A DNA stretch of 64,000 nt, taken from contig OY969767.1 of assembly GCA_963702895.1 (NCBI GenBank), forward strand, positions 1,184,001-1,248,000, in the 5' to 3' direction. This document shows positions 1 through 13,896 of this stretch, one piece after another. This DNA is from an uncultured Elusimicrobia bacterium (GTDB lineage: Bacteria; Elusimicrobiota; Elusimicrobia; 2-01-FULL-59-12). The notes below the pieces were generated by a model, which had not been told where the DNA came from, did no database searches, and worked only from the letters and a program-made list of their open reading frames with translations. Made by a program: the position numbers and the translations under genes. How positions within the stretch are numbered: position 1 is the stretch's first letter; each line of letters opens with the position of its first letter.

Positions 1-333
<333 letters not shown>

Positions 334-375
334 TCACCGCTTGAGATACTGTAGGAATCTGGCGGGATGGGGTGC

Positions 376-404
376 ATTCTATCAAAGGTCCCGTGCCAGA
401 ACAA
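376..404 (-). promoter_or_regulatory. Putative sigma70 promoter for gap
   Basis: Minus strand TTGTTC-17 nt-TAGAAT with TG extended -10 (TGaTAGAAT). Confidence 0.5.
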
Positions 405-1131
405 GCCCAGAAATCGGCCCTATTCCGGCTTTGCGCAGAGTGCTCGCACACGCTTGGAGCGTGCTGGTTGTGGTACAAACGTCGTCGATGAGTAAAAGGG
501 GCATGCCTTTGAGCCTGGCGCGCAGCGCTTGTGCTACAGGGTCAAGCGCAAAGGCTTCATGGACGTTCGTTTGACGATGGGCCCTGTCCAGAGTGGTCTG
601 TGAGACGGTCTTCCTCATTTTCTCAAGCAGGCGTAAGACGGGTCGCCCAATGTGACGACCGAGTTCCTGTGCCAAGAGATCAGCCTGATTGAAGCCGCGC
701 AAGCGTTCTTGCCGCTCAAAGAGTGGGACGGGAACAAGGCCCACCGTGGCGCCTAAGTCGGCATGGCACCGAAAGGCTTGGGATAAAAGTACCCCGAAGG
801 GAACCGACAGAGACTTCCTTCCTAAATACTTGAAGCGATACATCGCTTTCGCGACCGCTCCCTGATAGACCGTGGCCGCTCGTACCCGTAAGGCGGGAGG
901 GAACCTCTGACAGACGTAACACCATCTTCCCCCTTCGGGCAGAGGGATCCCACAAGCCTGACAAACGAGACCCTGAATCCGCGGGAGGTTCAGCCAGCAC
1001 GTGCCGCAGAAGCCTTCATCTTCGAGGCACGATAAAGGTGTCCGGCAGCCGGCGCAAGCCCACGGCAAGAAGAATCTTAAGAGATGAGAAGCAAGAAACG
1101 AGAGCTGAGAGACAGCTCTTCGACCTCTCAT
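382..1131 (-). CDS. comF: ComF family protein (double zinc ribbon + phosphoribosyltransferase-like)
   Basis: CAGC...FCGTC...CQACG...CYVC, RGFNQA, LLLIDDVCTTTSTL; ATG at 1131 overlaps the upstream stop (ATGA). Confidence 0.9.
   Translation of the reverse strand: MRGRRAVSQLSFLASHLLRFFLPWACAGCRTPLSCLEDEGFCGTCWLNLPRIQGLVCQACGIPLPEGGRWCYVCQRFPPALRVRAATVYQGAVAKAMYRFKYLGRKSLSVPFGVLLSQAFRCHADLGATVGLVPVPLFERQERLRGFNQADLLAQELGRHIGRPVLRLLEKMRKTVSQTTLDRAHRQTNVHEAFALDPVAQALRARLKGMPLLLIDDVCTTTSTLQACASTLRKAGIGPISGLVLARDL
1079..1124. repeat. Short GAGA-heptamer array (5 units) inside the comF 5' end
   Basis: aagagat gagaagc aagaaac gagagct gagagac agctcttcgac; same units as 1602-1776 and an inverted relative of the 50-bp unit at 1811-1960. 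Confidence 0.8.
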
Positions 1132-1523
1132 GTCGGTTGCTTCTTTTCGCGTTTGGCGTTTGCTTGTGCTGTGCGAACGGAGGCTACTAGGATGGCGGTT
1201 AATTCGCTGCACTCTCGTCGTAGCGCTTCCAAACCGGGTTCTTGGACGAGAGCAGACTCCATAATCAATGCGAGCCAATAGCCGGACTCCCGCATTTCTT
1301 TGAGCGCGATATGCATTTTGTGAATAAAATCTGCGCGTGACTCTGCAGAGCGTGCTTCTTGGGCATTTGCACCACACGATGTCGCGGAGCGCGAGAGTTG
1401 CTCAGCGATTGACTTTAGATCGGAGATTTGTCGCAAGGCAGAAGTGAGGCGTAAGATGGCGACACCAAAGTCTAGGCAACGTTCATGAAATCTCTTCTTG
1501 TTAGTTGGCGATACGTTCATCAT
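1128..1523 (-). CDS. Four-helix bundle protein (TIGR02436 / 23S rRNA IVP / Avd-like family)
   Basis: QLSRSATSCGANAQEARSAESRADFIHKMHIALKEMRESGYWL matches the family signature QL.RS.TSIGAN..EA...S..DF..K..IALKE..ET.YWL; 131 aa. Confidence 0.92.
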   Translation of the reverse strand: MMNVSPTNKKRFHERCLDFGVAILRLTSALRQISDLKSIAEQLSRSATSCGANAQEARSAESRADFIHKMHIALKEMRESGYWLALIMESALVQEPGLEALRRECSELTAILVASVRTAQANAKREKKQPT

Positions 1524-1601
1524 GGACTTCTATCCCTTAGATGCAAATCCACGCACTTTATTCACTTTATCGTCGGAGAGACTCGAATCCTGGTGAAGAG
1601 C

Positions 1602-1776
1602 GATAGCAGAGAAACAAGAGTAGAGAAATGAGAAGCGAGAGCAAAGAAGCGAAAGCAGAGAAGCGAGAGCAGAGAAGCGAGAGCTGAGAAGCGAGAGCTG
1701 AGAAACGAGAGCTGAGAGGCGAGAGCAGAGAAACGAGAGCTGAGAAACGAGAGCAGAGAAGCGAGAGCAAAGAAAG
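1602..1776. repeat. Tandem degenerate heptamer array (~25 in-phase units, mostly alternating GAGAGCW/GAGAARC)
   Basis: Direct reading, e.g. gagaagc gagagca gagaagc gagagct gagaaac...; 7-nt phase kept without indels for 175 bp. Confidence 0.95.
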
Positions 1777-1810
1777 CAGAGTGGACACACGTCATTGTCT
1801 CTTAACTCGC

Positions 1811-1966
1811 TTGTCGAGCGAGCCGCTGTCGTCTCTCGTTTCTCTGCTCTCGTTTCTCGCTTCTCGAGCGAGCCGCTGTCGTCTCTCGTTTCTCTGCTCT
1901 CGTTTCTCGCTTGTCGAGCGAGCCGCTGTCGTCTCTCGTTTCTCTGCTCTCGTTTCTCGCTTCTCG
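1811..1966. repeat. 3 x 50-bp tandem repeat built from the reverse-complement heptamers
   Basis: tt(g/c)tcgagcgagccgctgtcgtctctcgtttctctgctctcgtttctcgc at 1811-1860, 1861-1910, 1911-1960; only one variable base. Confidence 0.95.
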
Positions 1967-1971
1967 TATTC

Positions 1972-4900
1972 TTAGAACTGGATGGTCAGCAGGGTGTTGA
2001 CTTCGTAGCCGTAGGTGTTGGCGTCGGAACTGACTTTGTTGGCCGTGTAGAAATAGTTGCCGCCGAAGCTCAAACGGATGTTGGAGGTCATTTCATAATC
2101 ATTCGACGTCGAAATCTTGTAGGTGTCCGTGTTGCTGTTGAGCTCATCGATCTTGGACCTTCGCATATCGACAGAAAAGTTTTCCGTCGTTCGAATGCGG
2201 TTGGAGAAGACCACCAGGTCCGCGAAGGGCAATTTGAGCCCGGCGGGCAAGTAGAGATCCGCGTAGGCCTGCAGGGCGGCGGTTTTTGTCCGGAGGTCGG
2301 CTGTTAAACGGCCGGAAGCATCCTCTGTTTCGCGCGAGGTCTGATCATACTTGGGTGAGAGGCGCCATTTGCCGACGTTAAAGCCCAATTGCATTCCGAG
2401 GACCGAACCATGTGTTTGGGATGTGGTCACGCTGTTGATACGGTCGTAGGAGCTGTCCGAGGTCCTTGTGTAGGTGGTATAGAGATCGAGTTTGCGAAGG
2501 ATGGTAAAGCGCCAGTCACCGCCATTGGTCGACGCCTTTTGCAAAGAGATCCCTGCGGTGTCCACCTTCTTGTGTTGCGTCTTCAAGTTCAACTGGCTGT
2601 TGGACATCCAGCGGCTCGCGAGGAAGAGATGTTCGGTCTGGGCGAATCCCATCAGCAAGTCTGGGAAGACCTGGGTGATGATTTTCGTTGGGGTGCCCGT
2701 GGTCTCCTGGCGTTGCCGCGTGTCCGTGATGTTCGACGTGAGCGACATCGTCCGGATCGTGCGTCCTGGTCCTGTCCATTGCGTGGCCCAGTCAAAGGGA
2801 CTCAGGCGCTGTGTGGAGCGAACGGTTTCCCGGATGGTCAGATTGGTTCTTGTCCCTGAACCCAGGCTGTTTCGGACACTGATCGAATTCAAGCTGTTGT
2901 AGCCGCCTTCAACCTCCTTCCAGCTGTCACCGTTTTCTACAAGGTAAGTTGTGACGACATTCATAGACTGCAGTGGACGCAGGCGCCGTGTTAAATCACG
3001 CCAGGCGAGATCCCATCCCGCCTCGGCGGTCGAGGTGCGGTCCACTGTCTTTCGGTCAGCGGCAAGGAGGTTGGCGGCCAGTGGCAGTCCAAAGGTCTCA
3101 CGGTTGGTGATGGTGTAGCGCATGCGGGGAGAGAACCACCGGCGGAAGCTAAAGACACCATCCAAGCCCAGTGTTTGCGTCTTGAGTTTGTCATATTCCA
3201 CCGTTTGCGTCGAAACATTGATGCCGGTCGATGTTGAGAAGAGCACATCTTTTGCCTCGTGTGTGATGGACCGTGAGAAGCTGGGGTTGATCGAGAAGCC
3301 GCTGGCAGGCTGGAAGCTCAGTTTAGCGTTGATGTCCTGCGTGTTATTGCGCGTGTTCGAAACGGAGAAGGGGTCGCTTGCATTGGTGAGGGCTCCATCG
3401 CCGAAATTGAGTCGCAACCGGGAATACCGATAGCCCATGGAGATATTTCGCGGCAAGAACCGGCTGCGTGCCGGGACATCGTAATCCATGGTGATGCCGT
3501 AACGATCGGCCTTGTCCGTGCGAAAAATCTGGGAGGAGACAGTTTTGTTGGCGTCGTAGAAAAGGCCAAATTTGGGGAGTCGCGGGATTTGGAGTGTGCC
3601 CGATCCTGAAAAACTCTTGTCCCGTACGTCTCCTTCTTGGAGGTAGGACACAAGGGTTGAATTCACCGTGTTGATGGCCGGCGTGATGGTATGGCGTTGG
3701 CTGCCTGTAAAGGCCATCGGAAACCAACTCAGGCGAGTGAGGTTCAAGGTCGCGGTCTGCTCATGGCGGTCCTGGTTGGTGATGGCGCTCGTGAATGTTT
3801 CGAAGTTCCGGTCGATATTTCTGGCAGATCCGGTCAGCGAGCCCCATCCGAAAAGATCCAAGCTGGCCTTAAAGGAGGACGCATAGCCTACGCGGCTGAT
3901 GACATCAGCCCCATAGACCTCGTTGAACCACAATTCACCTGATCTTGTCGCGGCCGTGGTGGTATCGACGCCAAACTTGAGCTGTGCAATGGACGACAGG
4001 TTGGGGTTACCCACGGCTCGAACGGTCCCGTCGGGGACACCGGAAACCCAAAGGTTGGGTCGCTCACCACCCGTCTGGTCAATCTTGATCTGCGTCCAGA
4101 CGTCTGCCACAAGGCTGTCGATCGGATAGGAAAACTCCCAATAGTCTGTGTCGGATCCAGCCCTGAAGACAAGATTAGCCTCTTGGCCTGAGCTTGTTTT
4201 GGCCGCATTCTTTCGAACAAAAAAGCGCACACTCCCATAAGGTGTAAAGTCCATGGGGGACACGGTGACATTCTTGGCCAGGACCGTTCCCGAGGCGATG
4301 TCATAGCTGTAGTTGACTGCCAAGGACTGCTCCTTTCGGTTGGTGGGCGTGGGACCTGTGAGGGCGGTGTTGATTTGGTTGAGATCATCAAAATCCGGGT
4401 CGCCGGCTGGCGAGACATAGCTCGCGTCGTCTTCCGTATTGATGGCCGTAACACTGATGGTCGAGCCCACGACGGTGGGGTCTTCTGGTAACCATCGGTT
4501 CCCGACGATGGCGATTTTGGCGATATGGATTGTCCCGGTTTTGGTGGCTGTTCCCCCAGGCTTGAGTGATAGGCGTAGCTCTTTGATGGCTGACCAGTTG
4601 GATGCTGTCGAAGAGCTGATGTTGAGCGGCACGCGGACAAATTTCCACCCGCTAAAATCAACACGATTCTCAGGCTCACCAGGAAATGTGATGGAACTGA
4701 TCGGGTCGGTCAGAAGATCGGCGTCGTATCCGATGTTTCCGCCAATGAGTATGTTTTCGGTATTGAGGACCCCGTTGCGGTCGAGGTCGTTCGAATCAAT
4801 ACGCAAGTTGTTTGCTCCGAGCGTGGCAACGGTTGAATCTGGGTTGATAAAGGGAATGCCGGTGTCTTCGCTGGCATCGAGGGTGTTATTGCCATTGGCG

Positions 4901-9644: not shown

Positions 9645-9652
<8 letters not shown>
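8573..9652 (+). CDS. lptG: LPS export ABC transporter permease LptG
   Basis: VKIVDRYLIRSF...LPIATMLALLFSLGQLQQRGEFNAFRGAG; LPAWVAAWMSN; GTG overlaps lptF stop (GTGA). Confidence 0.88.

Positions 9653-13896
<4,244 letters not shown>

Follow-up and report, generated by a model that had tools for sequence, protein, structure and literature searches.

We analysed a 64,000-nucleotide stretch from the genome of an uncultured Elusimicrobia bacterium (GenBank GCA_963702895.1, contig OY969767.1, positions 1,184,001 to 1,248,000 of the forward strand), referred to here in its full length as the window. Within it, a small gene of the four-helix-bundle family TIGR02436/PF05635, bracketed by mutually complementary arrays of 7-nt repeats, lies between a gene for a SprA/Sov-like outer-membrane protein and comF (Table 1). 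This locus is one copy of a widespread gene-plus-arms cassette, which is best read as a protein-repeat pair that may act on DNA during competence, comparable to the repetitive extragenic palindromic (REP)-associated tyrosine transposases (RAYTs) and their REPIN repeats.

Table 1. Features of the cassette and its neighbouring genes, in the order of the minus-strand transcript.
Feature	Window position	Strand	Details
SprA/Sov-like outer-membrane protein gene, 1811 aa	1972..7407	minus	TIGR04189 E 2.5e-50, under curated cut-off; upstream host gene
Left outer arm	1806..1966	minus	3.2 tandem copies of a 50-bp unit, 97% matches
Pyrimidine-rich array, about 25 heptamers, 14-bp period	1601..1776	minus	complementary to left arm
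Promoter-like bipartite motif TGAATA-N15-CATCTAA	1537..1564	minus	between inner array and four-helix start codon
Four-helix-bundle gene, 131 aa	1128..1523	minus	TIGR02436 / PF05635
Right arm, five pyrimidine-rich heptamers	1079..1113	minus	complementary to left outer arm
comF, double zinc ribbon and phosphoribosyltransferase	382..1131	minus	start 1131
gap (glyceraldehyde-3-phosphate dehydrogenase), 5' part	1..312	minus	downstream host gene

The order of arrays and gene that the original prediction had read on the minus strand is confirmed by the repeat, profile and open reading frame (ORF) coordinates. The left outer arm abuts the stop codon of the sprA-like gene, and each of its 50-bp units comprises five purine-rich heptamers and a 15-nt tail; the 97% identity of the units suggests a recent tandem amplification. 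A 34-nt gap separates this block from the pyrimidine-rich array. At the other end of the cassette the stop codon of the four-helix gene and the start codon of comF share an ATGA overlap, and the right-arm heptamers lie in frame within the 5' end of comF, where they would encode the ComF N-terminus. The purine-rich block can pair, as had been proposed, with either of two partners: with the adjacent array over up to 41 nt at 80%, in a foldback of about 380 nt, or with the downstream copy over 39 nt at 79% (1075-1113 with 1938-1976), in a stem that encloses the four-helix ORF. Both arrangements are much more stable than shuffled sequence (z of -8.06 for 1590-1975 and -6.1 for 1060-1980). The further claim that the downstream copy shares the non-heptamer tail of the 50-bp unit stands only in part, since outside the heptamer no more than a piece of 5 nt and one of 3 nt can be matched by eye, the likeness is weak and the gap between them differs. 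A scan of the window with Rfam models gave nothing above gathering score, the weak matches to microRNA models merely reflecting the hairpin, while a sigma-70 promoter scan of the locus returned 0 sites and terminator-like sites numbered two, the same as in shuffles.

The association between gene and arms extends well beyond this locus. A total of 174 loci with four-helix homologs were pooled; dereplication at 80% protein identity left 137, of which the 122 with both flanks were kept, a sample biased toward the subfamily of the window protein. Complementary arms of 7-nt or 8-nt repeats bracket 82 of these 122 homologs, compared with 3 of 122 mismatched flank pairs and 1 of 150 small genes of the same genome as the window, which bears out the earlier suggestion of a self-contained unit. 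Periodicity in the flanks is maximal at lags of 7, 14 and 21, and a significant 7/8-nt period is found upstream of 89 homologs, downstream of 87, on both sides of 76 and on either side of 100. The window locus itself scores as lacking inverted arms in this test of 200-nt flanks, because its purine-rich arm lies further out. In distant homologs (Patescibacteria, Bacteroidota, Alcanivorax and others), a purine-rich heptamer run precedes the gene at 14 of 14 loci, and a clear complementary run follows it at all of them except L047, where it is weak, and L051, where the contig ends; a fifteenth locus, which has no upstream flank, is not counted. The heptamer units of these distant loci differ between lineages. 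Arm similarity tracks protein identity across the homologs (Mantel rho 0.45, p 0.001, n = 80), and the correlation persists (rho 0.41) when the 2,330 pairs whose neighbouring genes are unrelated are taken alone, there being 57 contexts among 69 loci. Other arrangements were also observed. A clade of homologs (L093, L153, L161, L201, L129, L166 and L088) has no downstream arm, some members carrying a heptamer hairpin entirely upstream of the gene and others another repeat, and the cassette at L120, as read by eye, sits between the end of an integrase-like gene and a sequence that resembles an integron attC site.

The genome that contains the window is a single contig, 98% complete, and carries ten four-helix genes; no further remnants of such genes were found in it. 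De novo clustering, which may merge or miss small or degenerate families, yielded 18 repeat families of three or more arrays, and the same procedure on shuffled DNA gave no linked pair. Eight of the ten paralogs have a genome-wide repeat family at their flanks, a different one in each case and with 8-nt and 21-nt families among them, an outcome with a probability of about 0.02 if families were drawn by abundance. Family arrays lie near an end of 215 of 2,084 called genes (about 10%). The family of the window, which is somewhat mixed as delimited de novo, comprises 34 arrays distributed over 25 sites, and some of these arrays fold as hairpins without a gene. A narrower scan for the 50-bp-unit family found 19 arrays, 14 of them outside this locus, against 0 in each of three shuffles. 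The original prediction had held that heptamer arrays scattered over the genome with no enrichment near four-helix genes would speak against it; the arrays are indeed scattered genome-wide, but they are enriched at four-helix genes, so this objection fails.

A similar co-occurrence of arrays and gene can be seen between genomes. Gene-free stretches contain 73 heptamer arrays in 1,180 kb from six gene-bearing genomes of the phylum, as against 2 in 1,173 kb from seven genomes where the four-helix family was not found (one fetched stretch of genome G024 was excluded from the count). Control lags of 5, 10 and 11 were low, with one genome reaching 3.9 per 100 kb at lag 10. A one-sided rank test with the window's own genome added gave p 0.005, a value that overstates the evidence because kin genomes are not independent. 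Two regions of this genome (coordinates prefixed G000:C1) stand out for their arrays. Downstream of paralog L006 (G000:C1:1170659-1171700), 120-bp units that are nearly identical and each form a small heptamer hairpin are repeated in tandem at least five times, and dense arrays of four repeat families occupy G000:C1:1843000-1857700, several of them translated in frame as the N-termini of genes, next to an ORF of about 8,500 codons.

The sprA-comF junction provides a comparison of the same site with and without the cassette. By tblastn, a SprA-like gene is conserved ahead of comF at 26 of 30 loci. The empty junctions that the original prediction had suggested looking for were found: the four-helix gene is missing from the junction in nine of ten relatives of the same bacterial family, eight of which have sprA directly upstream, with another gene in that position at L013. 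A genome of the same genus (G001) carries a four-helix gene at the same junction (L012:1005-1520) that belongs to the other main branch of the tree and has 8-nt arms, and its protein gave no tblastn match to the window protein. The junction of G004 (L019) retains a left 8-nt arm alone, and that of G006 (L020) has both arms with, as read by eye, a short GIY-YIG-like remnant between palindromes. These differing fillings suggest that the site may have gained, lost or exchanged its content on more than one occasion. A 5-nt word that recurs at both ends of the window cassette was considered as a target duplication and rejected, the right copy being conserved comF coding sequence. Farther along, an ORF at 9645-11402 of the window reads by eye as a secreted M6-like metalloprotease (HEFGH motif) with a C-terminal sorting-type domain, and adjoins lptF/lptG-like genes and the SprA-like gene.

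The original prediction had overlooked the bipartite motif that lies between the inner array and the four-helix start codon. In its strict form the motif occurs in 34 copies in the genome at a spacer of 15 and in none at spacers of 13, 14, 16 or 17, and a weight matrix built from the 34 copies finds 40 sites in the genome versus 0 in a shuffle. Its layout presumably resembles that of promoters for extracytoplasmic function (ECF) sigma factors. The motif precedes seven of the ten four-helix genes of this genome and 16 of 24 in relatives of the same bacterial family, and it is also found upstream of recA, comEC-nadK-recN (recN being third in the comEC operon) and yraN-comM-dprA, where comM, nadK and recN were named from their translations. 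Enrichment over a reversed control was seen in 11 of 11 genomes of the bacterial family. The motif stands before comF in ten of ten same-family relatives, once with a spacer of 16, versus none of 19 genomes outside the family, and, counting this genome, before recA in 9 of 10, comEC in 7 of 10 and yraN in 5 of 11. In this genome, the 1.5 kb ahead of each of uvrA, ssb and lexA showed no copy. ComEC, ComF, DprA, ComM and RadC are competence-associated proteins, and a set made up of recA, comEC, comF and the dprA operon without SOS repair genes therefore reads as a competence regulon rather than an SOS regulon. We regard the motif as a candidate promoter for an alternative sigma factor of competence. 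Known competence regulons have dedicated promoter elements, such as the ComX cin-box and CRP-S. The motif is like these in that one element stands before comEC, comF, dprA, comM, recA, radC and toxin-antitoxin genes, and unlike them in its different sequence, its bipartite form with a 15-nt spacer and its confinement to one bacterial family among the genomes searched.

Several further observations concern the reach of the motif. The 30 ORFs downstream of motif copies include five YhcG, three ORF6N, two BrnT and two Gp49/RelE-like genes. A truncated Y1 transposase, a PIN, a Phd and an antidote protein are also among them, and of the rest two belong to other families and nine to none. The two closest homologs of the window protein (53-56%) have no motif of their own and lie behind radC, which has one 0.9-1.0 kb upstream. 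Among paralogs, the window motif with its flanks is most like that of L006, matching at 38 of 50 positions (next best, 35). The five ECF-type sigma genes of the genome are candidates for the regulator, and no copy of the motif lies immediately before any of them; neither GxxExxY nor radC was found in the window's own genome. A search of that genome for comEA (PF12836) gave no clear match, with a single weak one in a secretion/pilus-like operon, so that the uptake machinery is not shown complete. Two arrangements of motif copies were seen elsewhere in the chromosome: three tandem YhcG/DUF1016 genes 1.55 kb apart, two of them truncated, each with its own copy (G000:C1:2035268-2039541), and two divergent, overlapping copies that face yraN-comM-dprA and a RelE-like ORF (G000:C1:687763-687812).

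The assignment of the window protein to its family is firm, with 83.8 bits for TIGR02436 (cut-off 24) and 63.1 bits for PF05635 (cut-off 33.8). The AlphaFold2 model of the 131-aa protein (pLDDT 90) has four helices, and its closest structure is BT_0352 (2RLD; E 3.8e-7, root-mean-square deviation 1.6), followed by Xcc0516 (2GSC). The homolog 2RLD has five chains and Xcc0516 is reported as a homopentamer (PMC4990558). By analogy with these homologs the window protein, which is basic (isoelectric point 9.4), is predicted to form a five-chain ring. Profile searches gave it no match to a catalytic family or an HUH nuclease.

By its defining features, the element in the window is a member of PF05635 and is not an intervening sequence (IVS) of rRNA, a diversity-generating retroelement (DGR) or a RAYT system. 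As the original prediction had stated, it is neither a standard DGR nor an rRNA IVS: the nearest reverse transcriptase is more than 700 kb away, and the single 23S gene lies elsewhere (G000:C1:581316-584326), is of normal length and matches the model in full. No reverse transcriptase or rRNA was found near the locus, and the transposase scan of the window covered a subset of families. Like the ORF-bearing 23S rRNA IVSs of Coxiella and Leptospira, the cassette combines a PF05635 protein with terminal inverted repeats and heptamers before the ORF, and is sporadic among relatives (PMC4990558). In the Coxiella IVS, the S23p ORF is preceded by tandem heptamers, and RNase III cleaves at the first repeat of an element closed by a 28-bp terminal stem (PMC4990558); because this is the same design, ORF-bearing IVSs look like copies of the cassette that may have landed in rRNA. 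Unlike these IVSs, the window cassette lies between protein genes and has an internal motif, an extra inner array, a triplicated 50-bp unit and a right arm that would encode the ComF N-terminus. The likeness to RAYT/REPIN systems consists of a distinct gene for each repeat group with its own flanking repeat, many inverted doublets without a gene, tandem higher-order clusters beside the gene, and co-divergence of gene and repeat (PMC3116915); the differences are a four-helix bundle with no HUH (Y1) match, arms made of 7/8-nt arrays rather than palindromic REPs, and a gene that itself relocates. The DGR protein Avd (PDB 4DWL, 8UB7) has a related fold, is basic and is pentameric in the literature (PMC10053308; bioRxiv 10.1101/2023.10.23.563531), but 4DWL is a weak fold match (TM score 0.63 by query and 0.74 by target, E 0.33, 16% identity), BT_0352 is structurally closer, no reverse transcriptase is nearby, and no DGR template/variable repeat pair was found in window 1-3000, the range searched. 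Genome-wide intergenic 7-nt arrays, often in convergent inverted pairs, have been described in Xanthomonas, Nostoc and Beggiatoaceae (PMC4692102; PMC4679880), in reports whose main texts, as available, never mention four-helix or S23 proteins.

Four explanations were weighed. An IVS at the RNA level, residing in an mRNA, is in our view rather unlikely: RNase III would cut the arm stem and release the cassette, and the ring would bind or protect the RNA, perhaps so that a reverse transcriptase acting in trans could copy it, as with Avd in DGRs. The Coxiella architecture described above favours it, together with the strong foldbacks at the window locus, a fold akin to that of Avd as a binder of structured DGR RNA (bioRxiv 10.1101/2023.10.23.563531) and a strand polarity among cassettes, the left arm on the mRNA strand being purine-rich in 54 of 82 and pyrimidine-rich in 3. 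The genome also encodes three 507-aa reverse transcriptase frames (G000:C1:230277, 463860 and 1962540), which are copies of one frame and probably belong to group II introns, but they lie more than 700 kb from this locus at about 1,185 kb. A selected RNA stem would be at odds with the arm mismatches of the 82 cassettes, which are G-U-compatible on the mRNA strand in 134 cases versus 149 in the mirror image (32 loci one way, 31 the other) and, within the window's own family, in 46 versus 68, and the inner foldback of the window is more stable on the antisense strand. Both large arrays lie upstream of the motif, so that a transcript driven from it (start near 1530) would carry neither, and its predicted fold is no better than shuffles (z -0.09); the arrays would be present in RNA that reads through from sprA. 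In this bacterial family, then, the internal motif would divide the arms between two transcripts, and a cut at the outer stem would fall within the comF reading frame. The same results bear on the regulator suggested by the original prediction, a ring resembling the trp RNA-binding attenuation protein (TRAP) that would wrap 7-nt-periodic leader RNA and control its own translation or sprA read-through into comF and gap, which we consider improbable. The family is basic and ring-forming, the right arm spans the comF start region, and periodic arrays near start codons in other bacteria have been proposed as regulator sites (PMC4679880). The large arrays, however, lie upstream of the motif and the downstream transcript folds unremarkably, the neighbours of cassettes are unrelated housekeeping genes that vary between relatives, and most relatives have sprA-comF-gap without a cassette. 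The lack of a sense-strand G-U bias and the array-free transcript argue against both a selected mRNA stem and TRAP-like autoregulation, though not decisively, given the strand polarity of the arms and the processing of the rRNA copies at the RNA level.

It is also doubtful that the four-helix gene is a passenger of hairpins that spread independently of the protein, by slippage, gene conversion or a lost transposase, and capture small genes of which it is the commonest, the motif then being the native comF promoter and a generic one of accessory genes. In favour of this, the motif precedes comF in relatives without the cassette, the arms in this genome also flank PIN and ATPase-like genes, a GIY-YIG-like remnant was read by eye between similar arms at the L020 junction, the sole Y1 transposase gene found in the genome is truncated, and two abundant repeat families have no four-helix partner. 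Arrays are nearly missing, however, from genomes in which no such gene was detected, the link between gene and arms spans phyla and 57 contexts, and the closeness of the window motif and flanks to those of paralog L006 suggests that the motif may have travelled with the gene. We tentatively prefer, at somewhat less than even confidence, a model in which the ring attaches to its own periodic arms on single-stranded DNA while the cell is competent, with the copying done by host recombination enzymes. The four-helix protein would be devoted to one repeat family, its own, and would act on single-stranded DNA when the genes for DNA uptake and recombination are switched on. Its basic ring would bind the periodic arms, which could pair in any 7-nt register and thereby offer short homology or foldback handles; recombination of the host RecA/DprA/ComM type would copy gene-less hairpins and, rarely, swap a gene-bearing cassette into a site. 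Cutting and joining are assigned to host enzymes because the protein has no recognisable catalytic family. The ATGA overlap would couple translation of ComF to that of the inserted gene, which may help to retain the cassette.

Several results weigh against this competence-linked, DNA-level reading. Two of the ten paralogs lack a genome-wide family, the two partnerless families are large (53 and 13 arrays), two gene-bearing genomes have 0 and 2 arrays in 200 kb, and one well-sampled clade of 15 homologs has no bracketing arms. Co-inheritance as a cassette alone explains both the co-divergence of arms and protein and the different arms of each paralog. No target-site duplication is definable at the window junction, and the Coxiella IVS protein is apparently not produced in vivo (PMC4990558). 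The competence link is confined to one bacterial family and is not general: the strict motif is found at 0 of 130 four-helix loci outside it, the neighbours there form ordinary operons, and of 96 neighbouring ORFs scanned the only ones to suggest DNA uptake or recombination are a recA, a prepilin peptidase and an XerC-like integrase. Even within the family, the motif stands before toxin-antitoxin, YhcG and ORF6N genes and may mark any accessory gene of the lineage, and the copy at the window locus may be no more than the original promoter of comF. A bolder extension, unlikely as it stands, is that PF05635 proteins are sequence-specific, non-catalytic drivers of transposase-free mobile repeats, each paralog recruiting natural-transformation recombination to its own 7/8-nt single-stranded array, and that in this bacterial family the genes have become part of the competence regulon. 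If true, one mechanism would account for heptamer repeats, ORF-bearing rRNA IVSs and the origin of DGR Avd.

In conclusion, the new observations are the motif between arrays and gene, one repeat family per paralog, an unrelated cassette at the same site, and the scarcity of arrays where the gene is missing. Within the open main texts searched, no paper was found that connects PF05635 proteins with competence or with repeat arms at sites other than rRNA; the protein was found together with heptamers in one rRNA IVS alone, and heptamer arrays are described without this protein (PMC4692102; PMC4679880). The cassette ties PF05635, which has been without a function for three decades, to the unexplained heptamer arrays of bacteria. 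The ten paralogs, eight of them with distinct arms, form a ready matrix of cognate and non-cognate binding partners, and together with the two different cassettes at one orthologous site they make the system testable. The motif outlines a candidate competence regulon in an uncultured lineage, for which no description was found in the literature searched, and, being common to DNA-uptake and recombination genes, it offers a first clue to the timing of the system.

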